Both the position numbers and the translations under genes were made by a program. Below, in pieces: positions 3,680 to 56,581 of a stretch of DNA of 64,000 nt. Position 1 is the stretch's first letter. Each line of letters opens with the position of its first letter. The notes under the pieces are model-generated. The model was not told the origin of the DNA. It saw nothing but the letters and a program-made list of their open reading frames with translations, and did not search any database. This DNA is from Candidatus Kerfeldbacteria bacterium (lineage in GTDB: Bacteria > Patescibacteriota > Patescibacteriia > UBA10025 > JAHIVO01): contig CP181398.1 of NCBI GenBank assembly GCA_047946875.1, positions 649,041 through 713,040 of the forward strand. Direction: 5' to 3'.

Positions 3680-4771
3680 TCATTTATCATACCTCCCTAT
3701 CTCCTCCTTTATTGTCCTAGCAACTACTTCCGGATCCTGCTTTTCATCGAAAAATATATTATGATAATGCGTATTATCTATCCCCAGCACCCTCAACACT
3801 TCCCATACTTTATTCTGTTGATCTTTGAATGCCTCAGGCAATACTACCAAATGAGTAATATCTAGATTCTCTTTCTTAATATAAGATGACGCATCAAGTG
3901 CCTCACATAACCACCGTCCATTAGTCGTACGCAGAGGTATCTCACCATAGGCAGGGTTCTCAGCATCGGGGTTAGTAAAATATATAGCCTCCCCTTTCCG
4001 CCTGATATTCCCATTAGCCTCCAACTGTTTAACTAGTTCCTCTGCCTCAATTATCTTCTCACTTTCTGAGATCAATAAATATTCCTTACCCTCGGTGGCA
4101 TCTTCTGACATTACCCCTTTTTCTTTTAACAAACCTTCTACACTTCTTTTAAAATTTTCTTTTACCCCATCTGACAGTTGCAACTGCGGAGCATCAAGTG
4201 GATCTCCTTTTTCAGTAGTTATTGCATGACCCTGTTCATCTGTCTGTATTTTTTTTGGCTTACCTAACAGATCCGTAGCATCAGGCATATCCGTATTATA
4301 TTCATCATAAAGAGATATCAACCTAGCCTTGGGGAATGATTCCGTTAATGTCTTCGCCACCTCTATCCCCACCTTATCCGTATCAGTCAGCTTATCCGAC
4401 CATATCTTACCACTAGATAGATCATAATCCGCCAAGTAAGGGCTAAATGACTCAAACTCCACCTTACGACCACTTCGATAATCTTCCAGGATTTCATTCA
4501 TTTGGCATAAGGAAAAATCCACGCCTTCACGCATGGCTTCTTTTGATGCTTCCTCTATTTCTTCATCCAATTTATATTTCAATTGCTTATCTCCAGCAGC
4601 TATACTAAAAGCACTTTTGAATTTATCTCTAATACCATTCAATATCTTTCTGATTTGCGAAGGACTTTTCTCCTCTTCTGTTTCAACTTCTGGAGAATCA
4701 TAAACCACCTCGGTCCTTTCAACCTCGTCGTTCCGCTCCACCTCTGGATTGTGCTTTAATGTTTCTGACAT
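3680..4771 (-). CDS. acidic hypothetical protein; probable third gene of the ATPase/DUF4276 operon
   Basis: 363 aa, Glu/Asp-rich N-terminus, no recognisable domain; starts 27 nt downstream of the DUF4276 stop on the same strand. Confidence 0.5.
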   Translation of the reverse strand: MSETLKHNPEVERNDEVERTEVVYDSPEVETEEEKSPSQIRKILNGIRDKFKSAFSIAAGDKQLKYKLDEEIEEASKEAMREGVDFSLCQMNEILEDYRSGRKVEFESFSPYLADYDLSSGKIWSDKLTDTDKVGIEVAKTLTESFPKARLISLYDEYNTDMPDATDLLGKPKKIQTDEQGHAITTEKGDPLDAPQLQLSDGVKENFKRSVEGLLKEKGVMSEDATEGKEYLLISESEKIIEAEELVKQLEANGNIRRKGEAIYFTNPDAENPAYGEIPLRTTNGRWLCEALDASSYIKKENLDITHLVVLPEAFKDQQNKVWEVLRVLGIDNTHYHNIFFDEKQDPEVVARTIKEEIGRYDK

Positions 4772-4797
4772 TTAATATTATAGTTATATTTCAATAT

Positions 4798-5490
4798 TTA
4801 TCTACTGACAAAAGAATCAACCTCTGTAATAAATTCATTTAAGCTATTAATCTTAGATTTAACAGATAAATACAATTCGCTATAATCTAATGCTTTGATA
4901 GTTCTTTTTATGCTATTTTCAGTCTTTGTATATCTTAATCCCACAATTTTATATATATCGTCTAAATCTATTGATGGATGACTTCTACTCTCTGGATTAT
5001 CTCTAAAAGGATCAAAATCAACACCAGTGCTTACAAGTGATTCTGTAAGAGAAGGATGAATTTTTCTATAATGACTTACCTCACCTAAAAACCATGCTTC
5101 CACTTCCATAATCGCTAGTACAATCTTTATTGGGATATATTTAGTTGGAACACGGGTAGATAGACCCATTTTTAAAGCTGGAATTTCAGCATGCGTAAAT
5201 GGATATACATCTCTTAACCCTATGATCCTATCGTAACCGCTTTCTGATAACTTTTCACAATGCTCAATAATGTCCGATTTAACACTTGAGTCTCCGCCAC
5301 AATCACGTATTAAAACATAATATTCCTTTTTAGGATTAATTGATTTTGCTTCAATTATTGTTAATAAATTTTTTTCAAATCTTTTTGTTTTAGATACTGT
5401 AATATTATTTTGACCAATAACTTCAATTAATAGCCTTTCTGAAAAAATTTGTTCTGTTTTACCCTCGACAAATATTGCTAACTTTTTCAT
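4798..5490 (-). CDS. DUF4276 family protein (Toprim-like)
   Basis: 230 aa; N-terminal KLAIFVEGKTEQIF plus IRDCGGD look like a Toprim Glu and DxD motif; 4-nt overlap with the upstream ATPase gene. Confidence 0.65.
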   Translation of the reverse strand: MKKLAIFVEGKTEQIFSERLLIEVIGQNNITVSKTKRFEKNLLTIIEAKSINPKKEYYVLIRDCGGDSSVKSDIIEHCEKLSESGYDRIIGLRDVYPFTHAEIPALKMGLSTRVPTKYIPIKIVLAIMEVEAWFLGEVSHYRKIHPSLTESLVSTGVDFDPFRDNPESRSHPSIDLDDIYKIVGLRYTKTENSIKRTIKALDYSELYLSVKSKINSLNEFITEVDSFVSR

Positions 5491-6629
5491 TTAATATTTT
5501 CATCTCTTAAATAAAAATTATTTGTAAAGAAATCAAAATTATTAAGTCCAGTATATTTAAATTCATCAAATAGCTTCTTAGAATTTTCATAATTAAGGAT
5601 ACTACATTTTCCTCCTACTCTATTAATAATAAGCCATAACTCAATTGGGATATCATTCATGACAAAGCGATCATTCGTAGTCATTATTAATTGAGCGGGT
5701 GAATCATCAATTTTTTTCATTAACAATTTAATAAGTGCTTGAGATCTCTCAAAATCTAATCCTTCACCAATATCATCAATGAGTATACAGGTAGGTGTTG
5801 ACTCTAAATGTGAGTAATTCAATTGAATAACCAATGACAAAGCTCTAAACATACCTTGAGAGATATCTTGTTGGTTTGTTATTCCTTCAAGATCTTTTTC
5901 CTTAACTGATAAACCCTTTGCCTCTATCTTCATCCCAAAATCAGATATAATTGGTATAGTTTCTAAAAAAATATTTTCTAATTGATAATTAATTTTCTTC
6001 ATATCCTTTCTGATTACATTTACAAATTTCTGACCATATTTTTTTTGACCTGCATCAAAAATATCAATTAGTCTGTTTATATTTTTTAAATTAATTTTTT
6101 CAATATTTTTATTTTGATTAATTCCTGAAACCTGATCTTTCCCCATTTGACTTCCAAATGGATAATAAAGAGTTTGCTTTCCCCATTTATATAGGTCATT
6201 AAAAAATGGGTGCTGAATTAAATCTTTCCTTACTACACAGGCTAATTCATTATTCGATACTTGAAAATCAATACTTTTTTTAAGTTGTACTGCAAATATT
6301 TTTCCTTTACCATTACCCTTTCTTTCTAGAAATTTCTTTTTATCTACTATGAATTCTTCTTTTAGTACTTTAGAATTTTTATATTTCAAAATATATTTAA
6401 CAATTTGTTTTCCATTCTCAAATTCAATTTCATAATTTCCTGAATTATATATTAATTTTTGATCACCAGAAACTAATGCAGCGAATGCATTTATAATATT
6501 TAATATTCTTGTTTTACCTGACGCATTTTTTCCAACAAGTAAATTTTTCTTACCAACGTTAAACTTTTTAACATGCCATGCTTTGGGCGTATTTTCAAAT
6601 TGACTATACTTGATTGATTTTAATATCAT
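5487..6629 (-). CDS. AAA_21/AAA_15-type ABC-like ATPase (OLD/PARIS AriA-like)
   Basis: 380 aa; Walker A GKNASGKT; C-terminal ILIDDIGEGLD Walker B/D-loop and TTND H-loop. Confidence 0.7.
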   Translation of the reverse strand: MILKSIKYSQFENTPKAWHVKKFNVGKKNLLVGKNASGKTRILNIINAFAALVSGDQKLIYNSGNYEIEFENGKQIVKYILKYKNSKVLKEEFIVDKKKFLERKGNGKGKIFAVQLKKSIDFQVSNNELACVVRKDLIQHPFFNDLYKWGKQTLYYPFGSQMGKDQVSGINQNKNIEKINLKNINRLIDIFDAGQKKYGQKFVNVIRKDMKKINYQLENIFLETIPIISDFGMKIEAKGLSVKEKDLEGITNQQDISQGMFRALSLVIQLNYSHLESTPTCILIDDIGEGLDFERSQALIKLLMKKIDDSPAQLIMTTNDRFVMNDIPIELWLIINRVGGKCSILNYENSKKLFDEFKYTGLNNFDFFTNNFYLRDENIK

Positions 6630-6674
6630 ATATTTATTTATTTACTAATCTAAATCTAATCCATTTTTAACTTT

Positions 6675-6700
6675 AAATCAACCCTGCCATTTACCCTCAC
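6675..6700. repeat. partial copy (A1) of the ~75-bp island repeat
   Basis: AAATCAACCCTGCCATTTACCCTCAC matches 25 of 26 nt with the start of repeats A2 and A3; lies about 45 nt upstream of the ATPase start. Confidence 0.7.
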
Positions 6701-6722
6701 AAATATCCCAGAATATCTTATT

Positions 6723-7829
6723 TTATTTTCCTGACTTAGTTCGATTATCCTGTTTACACAACATTTGACAATTTTTTGCTGTTGTTTTACCTCCTTCATG
6801 CCATGGATCAATGTGATCAGCTTCCATTTCAGAAATATCCCACTTCTGTTTCTTTTTGTTCTGCTTTTTGCAATCAGGACATACACCCTTTTGCCTCTCA
6901 TACGCTTCTCGCTTCATTTTATCGGTGAACGCGCGAATAGAAAGGTGCTTCTCCTGCCCTGTGAGTACATAAGGATAGATACCATATTTTTTTGTCACAT
7001 CCTCATCCTGCATCAATTTAGCAATTTCTGTTTCAAGTTTTTTTACACTTAATTTATTATCTTTGAATTGATTATATAGTTCTCCCCAATTCACGCTAAC
7101 CATTTCTTTACGATAATTTGTAAAAGTCTTTCGCACCCATTCAATCACATCTTGAAAATATCTCCACAACTCGTCAGCGTTTTTATCGTGTTGGTGTTTG
7201 GCCATGTAATCTTCTATCTTACCTTCGTTGATCCAGAAAAGTGCAGTTTCTAAATAATCTTGTCGTATTGGTGATCCACTTACCAAATGTCCTCCGTCAT
7301 TTGCTAAAAGATATGCTGCACAGTTTGATTTACTAAATTTCAATTTAGCATCACTTAACCATGGCCCCGTATAAACCGCATTGCGTAACTCTTGGTCGGT
7401 CAATTTTTCACCTGCAATATTAATAATCTTGAACCAATCAAGTCGCTCCCGATCTGTACCTTCGCACCAGTAAATCATAAGTTCATAATTCAAAATCTGA
7501 TCTTGTTCCTCATCTGTTAAATTATGAAAATACTTTTCATCTAGTGAAAAATCACCATTTACATATTGACCGATACTAATAGTACGCTGTTGACCATCGA
7601 GCATTTCGAAACCATCCTCATTCTTCAACCAATACATCACATTAAGTGGAAATTTTTGTTTGATGGATATTATAACTTCTTTACGTTGTTTGTCATTATA
7701 GACAAATTCGCGTTGATACTTAGGGCGAATATCGAGCTTGCCACCATATGCCACAACACCTTCTTCGGCGCTGTCTTTATAATCAGCGATTACTTCACGC
7801 ACAGAGATTCGATGTAGTTCAATTTTCAT
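6723..7829 (-). CDS. DUF262 (ParB-like DGQQR nuclease) with C-terminal HNH endonuclease domain
   Basis: 368 aa; DGQQR motif at about residue 80; C-terminus ADHIDPWHEGGKTTAKNCQMLCKQDNRTKS is an HNH motif with CxxC. Confidence 0.75.
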   Translation of the reverse strand: MKIELHRISVREVIADYKDSAEEGVVAYGGKLDIRPKYQREFVYNDKQRKEVIISIKQKFPLNVMYWLKNEDGFEMLDGQQRTISIGQYVNGDFSLDEKYFHNLTDEEQDQILNYELMIYWCEGTDRERLDWFKIINIAGEKLTDQELRNAVYTGPWLSDAKLKFSKSNCAAYLLANDGGHLVSGSPIRQDYLETALFWINEGKIEDYMAKHQHDKNADELWRYFQDVIEWVRKTFTNYRKEMVSVNWGELYNQFKDNKLSVKKLETEIAKLMQDEDVTKKYGIYPYVLTGQEKHLSIRAFTDKMKREAYERQKGVCPDCKKQNKKKQKWDISEMEADHIDPWHEGGKTTAKNCQMLCKQDNRTKSGK

Positions 7830-34454: not shown

Positions 34455-35204
34455 TTATTCTGGAAATGCTATTGCTAGTATTATAAACACTAAAACGCTT
34501 GCTAGCAAACCAGTAGTTAGATAAATTGGCTTACGATATTTATGAGCCATTGGTAATAATTCATGAATAGATATGTAAACCATAATCCCAGCAGAGAAAG
34601 CTAACATATAAGCATTCAAACCAGTGAAAAAACTAACCGCTAACAAACCGATCACAGCTCCTACTGGCTCAGCCAATCCAGAAACTATAGCAATCTTAAT
34701 TAATGATTTTTTATTCTTACCAGCTGTAATCAAAGGTACGGCCATAGCAAATTCTTCAGGAATATTATGAAGGGCAATAGCAATAGCTACCATTATACCC
34801 AATGAAGGAGAATTAACGAATGAGTTAGCCATAGCAAAACCTTCAGGAACATCATGTAATATCAAACCAAAAGCTAACAAATAAGCAGCAGCAATAATCG
34901 GCCTATTCGCTCCTTCTCTCTCTTTTATCAAATGAGTATGGGGAATTATATAATTAAGAATAGCAGAAAATCCGAATCCAATTATTCCAGTTAATATAGC
35001 TTTCGTCCAACCTGCCTCATCTATAGCTTCGGGGAATAATTCAAAAAACGAAATCAAAATCATAATACCAGTAGAAAACCCTATACCCACAACTATCAAA
35101 TATGATTTATTTTTTATACGATAAGCTAGCCAGACCCCGATCAAGGTGGTCATGCCAGACAATAATGCTAATACTATTATTGCTAAATATGTAGATGAAT
35201 CCAT
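34455..35204 (-). CDS. ZIP-family metal transporter
   Basis: 249 aa; HNIPEGFAMA and HELP motifs. Confidence 0.8.
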   Translation of the reverse strand: MDSSTYLAIIVLALLSGMTTLIGVWLAYRIKNKSYLIVVGIGFSTGIMILISFFELFPEAIDEAGWTKAILTGIIGFGFSAILNYIIPHTHLIKEREGANRPIIAAAYLLAFGLILHDVPEGFAMANSFVNSPSLGIMVAIAIALHNIPEEFAMAVPLITAGKNKKSLIKIAIVSGLAEPVGAVIGLLAVSFFTGLNAYMLAFSAGIMVYISIHELLPMAHKYRKPIYLTTGLLASVLVFIILAIAFPE

Positions 35205-36900: not shown

Positions 36901-38130
36901 TTACTCAGCTGAAAATTTCTTATCCAACTCAGTAACTTGTGGATCTACTTGCAAAGATTTCTCATTATATCCTATCAAACTTAATCCATTGAGAGATCTA
37001 ACTCTTGATAATGCTACATACCCCATCCCATATTCAAAAGTCTTACTAAGATCTATTTCTGTAAGATCCAAACTCATACCCTGACTTTTATGCACAGTAA
37101 TAGCCCAAGCCAAACGTAATGGCACTTGTGCTATCTCAGCCAAGACATCATCTTGCTCATCTATTGTCCAAGAAACTGGTTTTACTTTGATTGTTTTACC
37201 TTCTACAGTTTTGACTATTGGATAATTATCTTCATCATCAAAATCAATCACCTCTCCCATCGTCCCATTTATATATTCTTCTTTAAAATTATTTTTTACA
37301 AACATTACTGCCGCACCTCTCTTCAATATCAAGTCCTCTGGAGCTAAACAATTTTTCTTTAATGTCTGTACCAAATTTTCTATCCCATTAGATTTCATTT
37401 GGTATATTTTTGGTTTTCTATTTATTTTTGCCAGCTCCATCGAGTTTAATGAATCGACATCAGTATTATGTGTATAAATTTTTATTGGTTTGATGCGACT
37501 CTTGAGCTTAGCGCCAACCCTACTTTGCAATAGAGTGAGGTCAGCTGGGGTACATGTCTGTGATCTAATATTTTTTAATAATGTAAGAAACTTTTTATCT
37601 TGATGACGATGTTGTTCAGTCAAATAGCAAATCTCAGGATCTAGTTCTGGCCAAGCATGTGAATTCACTACAAAACTTCTAAAGCCCATTCCTCTGACCG
37701 GTTGAAGCTGAAAAAAATCTCCACTCAAAATTACTTGCAATCCTCCAAATGGTCTTACGTCCTGCCTAAAATATTTACAAACCTTATTTATAAGATCAAA
37801 CTGGTTAGCATGTAACATTGATATCTCATCAATAATCAAAATGTCATTATTTTTTATATGCTGTCGCAAGTAATCTTTCTTCATCATTTTGGATATCTCA
37901 CCATCAGTCAAAGTAGTTTTCAGCTGAATCCCAGACCATGAATGTATTGTTTTCCCACCTATATGCGTAGAGGCAATCCCAGTAGAAGCAGTTACAGCGA
38001 CAGCTTTACCTTCACTCTTTGCCCATTTGATAAATTTATTTAACAAAAAAGTTTTACCAGAGCCTGCGGCGCCGGTAATGAATGCGTTCCCACCATCTTT
38101 TAGTGCTTCTAGAGCTTCTTTTTGTTTCAT
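36901..38130 (-). CDS. PIF1/RecD-family SF1B helicase
   Basis: 409 aa; GAAGSGKTFLL, DEISML, C-terminal LSRVRSLNGL. Confidence 0.8.
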   Translation of the reverse strand: MKQKEALEALKDGGNAFITGAAGSGKTFLLNKFIKWAKSEGKAVAVTASTGIASTHIGGKTIHSWSGIQLKTTLTDGEISKMMKKDYLRQHIKNNDILIIDEISMLHANQFDLINKVCKYFRQDVRPFGGLQVILSGDFFQLQPVRGMGFRSFVVNSHAWPELDPEICYLTEQHRHQDKKFLTLLKNIRSQTCTPADLTLLQSRVGAKLKSRIKPIKIYTHNTDVDSLNSMELAKINRKPKIYQMKSNGIENLVQTLKKNCLAPEDLILKRGAAVMFVKNNFKEEYINGTMGEVIDFDDEDNYPIVKTVEGKTIKVKPVSWTIDEQDDVLAEIAQVPLRLAWAITVHKSQGMSLDLTEIDLSKTFEYGMGYVALSRVRSLNGLSLIGYNEKSLQVDPQVTELDKKFSAE

Positions 38131-38178: not shown

Positions 38179-38610
38179 CTAAAACAAGTTTTCTATTTCT
38201 TTATTATTAAAATATTGATATGGTAGCTCATGATACTTGCGTGGTAAATCCTGTTTGATGGGATTGTATTTTATATAACTAGTAACTGCTCTTAGATATT
38301 TACCTGTATCTATAATACGAGTGTAGAAACGACGTTGCCAAATATTACCCATATGTAATTTTCGGGAAAAATTTCCCTTGATTGATTGAATCAAATTCGA
38401 GATAGTATATTGATTGGCTGGTCGCACGTTGGAAAACGTGCTCTTGTTTGATGGCACAAACTGTTGAATATCCTTCGAGAGCACCCTTTCTAGGGTGCGA
38501 TCAACATATACCAACAAATGAATATAATCTGGCATTATTTGATATGCTAAAATATTATACCCTTTTAATCTACCCACATTGAATATGATGTCCGATAATA
38601 ATTTCGTCAT
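38179..38610 (-). CDS. IS200/RAYT-like transposase-family protein, N-terminally truncated, HuH degenerate (YIH)
   Basis: 143 aa; PDYIHLLV where an HuH motif is expected; WQRRFYTRII motif. Confidence 0.55.
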   Translation of the reverse strand: MTKLLSDIIFNVGRLKGYNILAYQIMPDYIHLLVYVDRTLERVLSKDIQQFVPSNKSTFSNVRPANQYTISNLIQSIKGNFSRKLHMGNIWQRRFYTRIIDTGKYLRAVTSYIKYNPIKQDLPRKYHELPYQYFNNKEIENLF

Positions 38611-38733: not shown

Positions 38734-38863
38734 ATACTATTATCTTACCACTCGTTCCAAATATATTCAATCATTATTGACAAAGTATATTATTTATTAT
38801 AAGTTTAGTTGAAAATATTAAACAGTTCTTTAATAATCATCAACCTCGAAAGGAGGTAATATC

Positions 38864-39532
38864 ATGAAACAAGAGACTAAGAAAAAACTCTACAAATTCT
38901 TAGCAATAGGAACCTTAATTCTTAGCCTTATAGCATTTATCATTTATGCTATTTATCGTTTTTTTAAATTTGTTACCTCTGGAACTCTTGAGGGTACTTT
39001 ATGGGGAATTGGTGTTATCATCGTTCCAATTCTCTTGTTTATCCTTATTTCAAGGATACGTGGTGAGTTATACCAACAAGAACGAGCTAAAATAAACCAA
39101 CAACGAAAAGAGAGAGAAGAAAAATTAGAGAGAGAAGAACGCAAGAGAAAAGCCGAAGCAGAAGCAAGAGAAAAATCAGAGAGAGAAGAACGCAAGAGAA
39201 AAGCCGAAGCAGAAGCAAAGGAGGCAAAGAGAAGAGGTATCTGCGTTTGCTGTGAAAAACCATCCAAAAATTTAGATTCTTTGGCATGGTGTAATAATTG
39301 TATTCTTGAGGTTGAACGTATAAAAAGAAAAAGAAAAGAGAAACCGCTACGTGATGCTGAAGAAGCTGGTAAGGATGTATGTTGGGAATGCGAATCTATT
39401 AACCCTAATAGATTCAGAACAGGTGAATGCATACAATGCTCAAATAGATGTCGCTGTGGAGCACCCTTCACTAGACACAACCCTAGCTTAGGCGGAGAAT
39501 GCGTTGACTGTTTTCTTGATTATGATGACTAA
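38864..39532 (+). CDS. membrane protein with charged coiled coil and a Cys-rich (6x CxxC) C-terminal domain
   Basis: 222 aa; two TM helices, ER/K-rich repeat, CVCCEKP..CNNC..CWEC..CIQC..CRC..CVDC. Confidence 0.6.
   Translation: MKQETKKKLYKFLAIGTLILSLIAFIIYAIYRFFKFVTSGTLEGTLWGIGVIIVPILLFILISRIRGELYQQERAKINQQRKEREEKLEREERKRKAEAEAREKSEREERKRKAEAEAKEAKRRGICVCCEKPSKNLDSLAWCNNCILEVERIKRKRKEKPLRDAEEAGKDVCWECESINPNRFRTGECIQCSNRCRCGAPFTRHNPSLGGECVDCFLDYDD
39127..39228 (+). repeat. perfect 51-nt in-frame tandem repeat x2 (EREERKRKAEAEAREKS)
   Basis: Identical 51-nt units at 39127 and 39178. Confidence 0.85.
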
Positions 39533-39596
39533 AAAGCCTGGTAGTTTACTACGAGGCTTTTATTATTTCTATAAAAAATAGAAAACTTTAATCTTA

Positions 39597-56206: not shown

Positions 56207-56581
56207 ATGAATAAATCACAAAAAATATTAATTTTTGCTTTCGCATTATTGCTAGTATTATCACCTATTTTTCTTTATGCTGCGACTTTTGAATTTGATC
56301 CAGATAATCGCATAAAAAATGGACTAGAAGGAGAAATTACCACTGTAAATCCAGAAGATATTACAACAAATACTATGAGCTGGATACTAGGTTTATTAGG
56401 ACTAATATCTGTAATAATTGTACTATATGGTGGATTCAGTTGGATGACTGCAGCTGGTAATGAAGAAAAATTATCAAAAGCAAAAAAATTATTAACCTAC
56501 TCAATCATAGGACTAATAGTTATTCTTTTTGCTTGGGTTATGGTTTCTTTTGTATTTGATACAGCAAACAATAGCTTCTAA
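56207..56581 (+). CDS. VirB2/TrbC-like (T4SS pilin-like) small membrane protein
   Basis: 124 aa; signal peptide plus two TM helices with LYGGFSWMTAAGNEEK between them. Confidence 0.45.
   Translation: MNKSQKILIFAFALLLVLSPIFLYAATFEFDPDNRIKNGLEGEITTVNPEDITTNTMSWILGLLGLISVIIVLYGGFSWMTAAGNEEKLSKAKKLLTYSIIGLIVILFAWVMVSFVFDTANNSF

Follow-up and report, generated by a model that had tools for sequence, protein, structure and literature searches.

A membrane protein of Candidatus Kerfeldbacteria with a predicted ER/K helical spacer and a divergent module of a rare eight-cysteine family

What might a small bacterial membrane protein do when it carries, at the end of a long charged helix, a head crowded with cysteines? 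The question is raised by an open reading frame (ORF) in a 64,000-nucleotide (nt) stretch of the genome of a Candidatus Kerfeldbacteria bacterium (contig CP181398.1 of assembly GCA_047946875.1, positions 649,041 to 713,040 of the forward strand), referred to here as the window. The encoded protein is identical to the ORF product on record as 'hypothetical protein ACNFW9_03560, Candidatus Kerfeldbacteria bacterium', from a lineage of the Candidate Phyla Radiation (CPR). A preliminary description, drawn from the nucleotide sequence, had given the position of the ORF and its 222-residue product exactly, and the architecture that it outlined, in which two transmembrane (TM) helices are followed by a charged helix and, at the C-terminus, by a Cys-rich domain, is borne out by our analysis (Table 1). 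Most of that description holds once several details are corrected, and its interpretation finds partial support. Our results place the Cys-rich domain in a rare family of eight-Cys modules and lead us to propose, at about even chances, a two-zinc docking head that lies in the cytoplasm and is held at the membrane through a spacer rich in Glu, Arg and Lys (ER/K).

All 13 Cys residues of the protein lie within residues 127-216 and none in residues 1-126. They form five CxxC pairs (127/130, 143/146, 173/176, 189/192 and 213/216) and one CxC (196/198), where six CxxC pairs had at first been counted. Two blocks are distinguished in this head, a simple Cys block (unit A) followed by a more elaborate module (unit B). 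A word-indexed search with the full protein returned the protein itself and one relative (P0002) only, and the same kind of search with unit alignments returned nothing and then a single protein (P0006); a related-locus search with the window protein found nothing in genome or metagenome collections. An exhaustive phmmer search with residues 120-222 against 1.84 billion representatives recovered three weak relatives (P0003-P0005, E 1e-5 to 2e-4), which revealed a repeated unit, G-x-D-V-C-x2-C-x-T-I-x-P-x-R-C…. This unit was recast as a degenerate DNA pattern, with which genome and metagenome collections were scanned; after translation of the matches, the true members stood cleanly apart from chance matches to the pattern. 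These scans yielded a family of 39 distinct proteins from Parcubacteria, Falkowbacteria, Moraniibacteriota, Minisyncoccia, Desulfobacteraceae, Desulfobulbaceae, Chlorobiaceae, Planctomycetota and unclassified metagenome-assembled genomes. The pattern matches on viral contigs were spurious and included no family member, and tblastn against phage and plasmid collections gave no match.

The consensus over 50 units from outside the window is xxAxxxGxDVCxxCxTIxPxRCxCGxCxxCx(5-8)CxxC. Its eight Cys columns, five of which lay outside the search pattern, are kept in 43-50 of the 50 units, and the modal Cys count per unit is eight. Against a profile of these 50 units, unit B scores 40.4 bits (E 8e-12), and the next best of the 847 ORFs of the window reaches E 0.26. 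Judged from this profile match, unit B belongs to the rare eight-Cys family. It keeps six of the eight family Cys, Phe183 and Thr186 standing at Cys3 and Cys4, and carries two extra Cys, 196 and 198, in an insert before Cys7. The unit of another member (L110) also has Phe at Cys3 together with extra Cys downstream, which hints at a relocation of ligands.

Family members carry one to three copies of the unit. An N-terminal anchor is present in 29 of the 39, Asp is found at the C-terminus in 33, and the linker from the anchor to the first unit spans 27-289 residues (median 60) and is often ER/K-rich. Most members share an N-terminal membrane anchor, a charged helix, one or more eight-Cys units and a C-terminal Asp. 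The window protein has the anchor, the charged linker and the terminal Asp, and is without the full set of eight family Cys. Its nearest full-length relative, from Parcubacteria (L038/L072), is 27.7% identical over 217 residues (tblastn E 1e-14). On these comparisons it is a divergent, lineage-specific member of a rare family that is absent from Pfam and NCBIfam.

To which known domains does this module come closest? The Cys domain of the window protein had no significant match among Pfam, NCBIfam, PHROGs, PADLOC and PDB sequences, nor had the family alignment among Pfam, NCBIfam and the PDB; a common rubredoxin-like fold of known function, which the preliminary description had named as one outcome that would overturn it, was not among the matches. 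When 25 family units were compared with Pfam, weak matches were obtained to DZR (two units, best E 1.6e-5), DZR_2 (two), DHHC (six, best E 0.03) and Fer4 (three, best E 0.0015), and NCBIfam gave none. No relevant description of a Cys-rich zinc-ribbon family of CPR bacteria was found in the literature. The double zinc ribbons DZR (PF12773) and DZR_2 (PF18912) resemble the head in their paired CxxC knuckles, with four Cys per zinc and two sites per module. The window protein, however, does not match DZR even at E 10, and the family has a signature of its own (GxDVCxxCxTIxPxRCxCGxCxxC…CxxC), in which the knuckles look nested whereas those of DZR are consecutive; moreover, the family module always lies C-terminal to a membrane anchor and charged helix, and ends in Asp. 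The top PDB match of the family profile, at a non-significant E of 0.24, was the zinc knuckle of methionyl-tRNA synthetase (MetRS), PDRFxxGxCxxC…CxxC. The knuckles of the MetRS connective peptide (PDB 1qqt, 1pfu), P-[DN]-R-F-x-x-G-x-C-x2-C … C-x2-C, are close to NPNRFRTGECIQC of the window protein and their pairs are likewise nested, but they form an insertion within an enzyme, whereas the window head is free-standing and tethered, and no further similarity to MetRS was found. The DnaJ cysteine-rich domain (PF00684) and the CXXC domain (PF02008) are also compact modules with eight Cys and two zinc ions, and the CGxCxxC stretch of the family resembles the eukaryotic CXXC-domain motif; however, both domains were absent from the matches of the 25 units at E 10, and their spacing and conserved non-Cys residues differ. 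By these sequence comparisons the family module is zinc-ribbon-like in kind and stands outside any curated family examined. It is a variant within the tethered modules of zinc-ribbon type, with a distinctive signature.

The framed Cys with conserved non-ligand residues, the replacement of Cys8 by His in three units, the predicted cytoplasmic location and the knuckle-type spacing argue indirectly for bound zinc. The His substitution and the location, together with the weak similarity to DZR and to the MetRS knuckle, also favour zinc over disulfide bonds. A different use of metal can be imagined, in which the head would be a membrane-tethered, metallothionein-like buffer or sensor that holds variable Zn, Cu or Cd in thiolate clusters, with the acidic tail helping to capture cations. 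We consider this unlikely, although it survives better than the other alternatives. The number of Cys per unit does range from 7 to 18, some members (e.g. L069) consist of about 30% Cys with runs of CC, CxC and CxxC, and a gene for a ZIP-family metal permease (34455-35204, minus strand) lies 3.7 kb upstream of the Cys-rich gene in the window. Yet eight Cys in a fixed frame, accompanied by conserved G, D, V, T, I, P and R that are not ligands, are what a folded zinc module typically shows and metallothioneins do not, and the window protein contains merely 13.5% Cys over its last 96 residues. The permease gene has no counterpart at the other family loci, where the clustering of neighbours contained no ZIP gene, and its proximity may be due to chance.

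The preliminary description had suggested either a multi-zinc-ribbon domain or a redox module. The reading as several zinc-ribbon-like knuckle pairs is supported, and the evidence decides neither for nor against a redox role. As an alternative in its own right, the head would be a membrane-associated redox sensor, either cycling between thiol and disulfide at CxxC or binding a [4Fe-4S] or [2Fe-2S] cluster through CxxCxxC. CxxC is the classic redox motif, the combination of CxC with CxxC recalls, as a lead only, the zinc redox switch of Hsp33, and the weak Fer4 matches arise from the CGxCxxC of the consensus. The window protein itself has no Fer4 match; the corresponding stretch reads TGECIQC, in which the first Cys of CxxCxxC has given way to Thr186. 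The ferredoxin-type CP motif is missing too, the change of Cys8 to His and the knuckle-type spacing fit zinc better, and neither the context of a thioredoxin-like fold nor neighbours for iron-sulfur assembly were found. A redox or iron-sulfur module is therefore improbable in our estimation.

On which side of the membrane would the head lie? The two hydrophobic helices that had been proposed are recovered by hydropathy (residues 12-30 and 44-62), and AlphaFold2 (AF2), run without an alignment, predicts helices over residues 3-39 and 42-124. The two-TM hairpin recurs as a module in P0002, L038/L072, L092 and L064; L038/L072 has it with the conserved loop FKFVTSGTWQGTL, as do L092 and L064, and the conserved loop is shared by P0002. 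The hairpin of P0002 is 46% identical to that of the window protein, and P0002 is devoid of the Cys domain; this protein of 182 residues (L003, 3334-3882, plus strand) has an Asp-rich tail (…DDDDGAWEDDFYAGNDDWGP) in place of the Cys module, which indicates that the hairpin is a module combined with different heads. In the window protein, both the N-terminus (net +4) and the flank after TM2 are rich in Lys and Arg, and the short loop has a net charge of +1; from the basic flanks, both ends of the hairpin are predicted to be cytoplasmic. The C-terminal flank is also the richer in Lys and Arg in all 14 single-TM members of the family (mean 4.1, against 0.4 on the N-terminal side), so that in both versions, with one TM helix or two, a cytoplasmic head is predicted.

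These charges bear directly on the view that the Cys-rich domain points out of the cell, stabilised by disulfides and carried on a TolA-like stalk; in an episymbiotic CPR bacterium it might serve, for example, in contact between cells. CPR bacteria are dependent on contacts at their surface, and the layout of an anchor, a charged helical stalk and a small C-terminal domain is that of TolA, to whose helical region NCBIfam gave a weak compositional match (E 0.26). Against an outward head, many single-TM members begin with a hydrophobic segment and have no basic n-region, and the positive-inside rule puts the C-terminal side in the cytoplasm both in the 14 single-TM members and in the window hairpin. 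The odd number of Cys in the window protein and the His in place of Cys8, which would be intolerable in a disulfide partner, also speak against it, and we hold an outward-facing domain to be quite unlikely.

In its order of parts, the protein is comparable to tethers of the ZipA and TolA type, which consist of an anchor, a charged extended linker and a small C-terminal binding domain. The N-out/C-in orientation of ZipA matches the orientation predicted from charge for the single-TM members, whereas TolA faces the periplasm and the window head is predicted to be cytoplasmic. There is no sequence homology with either protein, and the C-terminal domain of the window protein is Cys-rich, having neither the ZipA fold nor that of TolA domain III. 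The zinc-binding anti-sigma (ZAS) factors also combine a small, cytoplasmic zinc-binding domain with a membrane tether, and sequester a partner. However, their order is reversed, the ZAS domain being N-terminal, and the window protein has no HxxxCxxC motif and no Pfam match.

The charged region between the membrane and the head had been described as an ER/K-rich coiled coil. The first part of this description holds, since 66% of residues 64-125 are Glu, Arg or Lys. The coiled coil is rejected: only five of the 62 residues are hydrophobic, and in the best heptad register 3 of the 17 a/d positions are hydrophobic, which leaves no hydrophobic core. The region contains 23 pairs of opposite charge at i/i+4. 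AF2 models one unbroken helix over residues 42-124, running on from TM2, with block means of the predicted local distance difference test (pLDDT) of 92-97 over residues 61-110, 78 over residues 111-120 and less than 50 from residue 124. Because it is rich in Glu, Arg and Lys, dense in charge pairs and free of a hydrophobic heptad seam, the spacer more likely reads as an ER/K single alpha-helix (SAH), a behaviour that we infer from the sequence and the model. SAH domains, of which the medial tails of myosin VI and X and caldesmon are examples, have the same very high content of these three residues and dense i/i+4 opposite charges with no hydrophobic seam, and like them the window spacer is predicted to be a long isolated helix that acts as a rigid spacer. 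Known SAH domains are mostly eukaryotic and soluble, whereas the helix of the window protein is predicted to run straight on from a bacterial TM helix.

Within this spacer lies the tandem repeat of 51 nt that first drew attention to the gene. It had been called perfect and placed at 39127-39228, a register that is off by 9 nt and in which only 44 of the 51 positions match. In the best register (39118-39168 and 39169-39219) the copies are identical at 49 of 51 positions, and TRF reports a period of 51, 2.0 copies and a 98% match over 39118-39218; the exact core is 41 nt long (39127-39167 = 39178-39218). The in-frame copies read EKLEREERKRKAEAEAR and EKSEREERKRKAEAEAK and share 15 of 17 residues, every difference between them altering the protein (L/S and R/K). 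Such near-perfect copies support the proposal of a recent duplication. The accompanying suggestion of length variation between strains found no support: the protein is identical on five contigs, the DNA is 100% identical over 1 kb in the three that were aligned (the window, NCBI GCA_008633345.1 and JGI 3300083231), no copy-number variant was seen, and the cluster at 90% identity consists of one sequence. Because of this agreement between contigs, the repeat is not an assembly artefact. Among 39 family genes compared, no other member has an in-frame exact repeat of more than 15 nt, which makes the duplication specific to this lineage; slippage-prone linkers as a trait of the whole family were rejected on the same ground. 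The duplication lengthens the spacer by 17 residues, or about 2.5 nm (2.55 nm at 0.15 nm per residue, the value from which all spacer lengths were computed).

Taken together, these observations suggest the following model. A two-helix hairpin would anchor a small inner-membrane protein with both ends in the cytoplasm, and the second TM helix would run on into an ER/K single alpha-helix of about 62 residues, forming a stiff spacer of about 9 nm. This spacer would hold a cytoplasmic Cys-rich head made of a simple knuckle pair of Cys4 type, one eight-Cys module and an acidic tail that ends in Asp. In the eight-Cys module, nested knuckle pairs most likely hold two zinc ions; in the window protein two of the ligands appear to have moved, Phe183 and Thr186 replacing Cys3 and Cys4 and Cys196 and Cys198 being gained. 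Unit A is treated as a generic Cys4 knuckle pair, and in one alignment it sits on the outer Cys pairs of the family. The head is probably a docking surface by which a partner in the cytoplasm would be kept at a fixed distance from the membrane, and the recent in-frame duplication of 51 nt would have lengthened the spacer between the two. The alternatives considered here, namely a metal buffer or sensor, an iron-sulfur or redox module, an outward disulfide domain and a non-functional ORF, are all less likely than this docking head.

Several results weigh against the docking head. Unit A has no significant match to the family profile (0.8 bits), and unit B is without two of the eight conserved Cys, the exchange of ligands being a guess from the sequence. 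With its excess of acidic residues (unit B has a net charge of -3) the head is unlikely to bind nucleic acids, but this points to no partner, and neighbours are heterogeneous across the family loci, with no conserved operon partner among them. For the Cys region the AF2 models are weak, with a pLDDT of about 40-50 without an alignment and 69 with eight sequences. The second of these, a model of the unit, exceeds 90 over the first 20 residues and falls thereafter, and a Foldseek search of the PDB with this model returned nothing (E > 5). Finally, the cytoplasmic topology is deduced from a single line of evidence, the positive-inside rule.

Table 1. Positions in the window of the Cys-rich gene, its parts and signals, and the adjoining transposase-like gene.
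Feature	Position	Strand	Remarks
Coding sequence	38864-39532	+	222 residues plus stop; Candidatus Kerfeldbacteria bacterium
Ribosome-binding site GGAGG	38852-38856	+	7 nt before ATG; read from sequence
Promoter-like site TTGAAA, 17 nt spacer, AATAAT	38809-38837	+	26 nt upstream of start codon
Predicted two-TM hairpin	38897-39049	+	TM1 residues 12-30, conserved loop FKFVTSGTLEGTLWG, TM2 residues 44-62
Predicted ER/K-rich single alpha-helix spacer	39053-39238	+	Residues 64-125; about 9.3 nm if fully helical
Tandem duplication, 2 x 51 nt	39118-39219	+	49/51 identical; encodes residues 86-102 and 103-119
Unit A, simple Cys block C127-x-C129-C130 ... P133 ... C143-x2-C146	39239-39301	+	Residues 126-146; zinc-ribbon-like
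Unit B, one copy of family module (DAEEAGKDVCWECESINPNRF..C..C..CxC..CxxC)	39353-39511	+	Residues 164-216
Acidic C-terminal tail FLDYDD, ending in Asp	39512-39529	+	Family trait
Terminator-like hairpin (39532-39561), then U-rich tract	39532-39572	+	RNA fold
Y1-transposase / REP-associated tyrosine transposase-like gene	38179-38610	-	143 residues; Pfam Y1_Tnp E 5.8e-8

The ORF is a real gene: homologues of it exist, a promoter-like site and a ribosome-binding site precede it, and a terminator hairpin closes it. The promoter-like site is assigned by its consensus (10/12 match). The terminator-like hairpin, whose first base is the final one of the stop codon, separates the ORF from a convergent DUF6498 gene; its folding energy is -16.6 kcal/mol (z -4.9), and none of 200 shuffled sequences was equally stable. 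The GC content is 37% in the ORF and 34% in the window. Since its upstream neighbour is divergent and its downstream neighbour convergent, the gene looks like a stand-alone transcription unit. That the repeat or the entire ORF arose as an artefact of assembly, or that the gene is in decay and without function, is very improbable: no close orthologue exists among the 1.84 billion representatives, where all relatives are below 50% identity, and the gene adjoins a degenerate transposase-like gene, but independently assembled contigs agree in DNA and protein as described above, the array of 102 nt is presumably shorter than a typical short read, the frame is intact and equipped with a ribosome-binding site and terminator, and the protein has kept its family signature, its hairpin module and its terminal Asp.

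The neighbours of the gene in the window encode signal peptidase I, a PIF1-like helicase, a short Y1-transposase-like protein, the DUF6498 membrane protein, an APH-type kinase and a DUF7670 membrane protein. The transposase-like gene scores 33.3 bits with Pfam Y1_Tnp (cut-off 23) and 55 with NCBIfam REP_Tyr_transpos (cut-off 80). It matches these profiles only from position 27/33, and its HUH position reads Y-I-H (PDYIHLLV). The gene is probably inactive or domesticated. It does adjoin the Cys-rich gene, as had been pointed out, and no functional tie between the two was found; of the other family loci a single one has a transposase-like neighbour, which is oriented differently there. The flanks of the gene showed no convincing repeats, and a role as cargo of a mobile element was rejected because convincing terminal repeats are missing; in this AT-rich DNA, 6 kb contain 14 inverted pairs of the kind found at 38186/39573 (16 nt). 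The PIF1-like SF1 helicase (36901-38130, minus strand; Pfam PIF1 E 1e-37) lies between signal peptidase I and the transposase-like gene and has weak matches to RecD-like defence models of PADLOC. A component of a defence system was rejected, given that PADLOC produced only these generic helicase matches, for the neighbour. A precursor of a ribosomally synthesised and post-translationally modified peptide (RiPP), or one of SCIFF-like type, was rejected as well, since neither the conserved neighbour clusters nor the immediate neighbours include a radical-SAM enzyme or other maturase. Elsewhere in the window, a small ORF (56207-56581, plus strand) is similar to pilins of type IV secretion systems (tblastn E 1e-11 against an ORF of L031 that matches PF18895) and is followed by an ORF of 922 residues on the opposite strand.

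At other family loci, a few arrangements stand out. One metagenome contig (L107) carries two paralogous family genes in tandem (5200-5769 and 6263-6844, plus strand), about 500 bp apart. In Minisyncoccia, the gene for P0006 (L013, 4270-4593, minus strand) is situated 83 nt downstream of dnaJ on the same strand, and the two may be co-transcribed in this single case. At L111, a family member (3793-4479, plus strand) is followed by a gene for a sigma-70 factor of extracytoplasmic function (ECF) type (4581-5147, plus strand), the only locus with a sigma factor as neighbour.

Seven distinct CPR loci have a convergent pair of genes, tpiA (triosephosphate isomerase) and one for a tetratricopeptide repeat (TPR) protein, 0.2-4 kb from the family gene; the TPR genes include L020 2311-3198 (minus), L031 4022-4828 (minus), L024 6423-7226 (plus) and L007 1071-1877 (minus). 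In the one TPR protein that was translated (L020), the TPR repeats come after a hydrophobic anchor at the N-terminus and a stretch rich in charge. This pair is missing from the window, and we regard the proximity as conserved synteny until shown otherwise. Together with the near-invariant C-terminal Asp of the family, it hints at a possible contact between TPR protein and tail. It is conceivable, as a long shot, that the family represents a new kind of bacterial membrane tether, in which the two-zinc head and the C-terminal Asp would form a docking motif recognised by a partner. The length of the ER/K helix, altered in the window protein by the fresh duplication of 17 residues, would then tune the distance from the membrane at which the head works. 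The membrane-anchored TPR protein may then be the docking partner, and might use a carboxylate clamp, by analogy with the EEVD-TPR contacts of eukaryotic chaperones.

As long as neither a partner nor a phenotype is found, the value of these findings is descriptive, and no major open question is touched yet. Among the many small membrane proteins of CPR bacteria that have no assigned role, one orphan is now placed in a definable family, spread over CPR bacteria, Desulfobacterota, Chlorobiaceae and Planctomycetota, whose signature is clear (eight framed Cys and a terminal Asp) and whose architecture recurs. Neither Pfam nor NCBIfam contains the family; a model of it could be contributed, by which roughly 40 or more proteins would be named. 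The window protein also offers a clean example from nature in which a single recent duplication has made a spacer helix longer, and its spacer could serve to examine whether bacterial ER/K helices work as length rulers.

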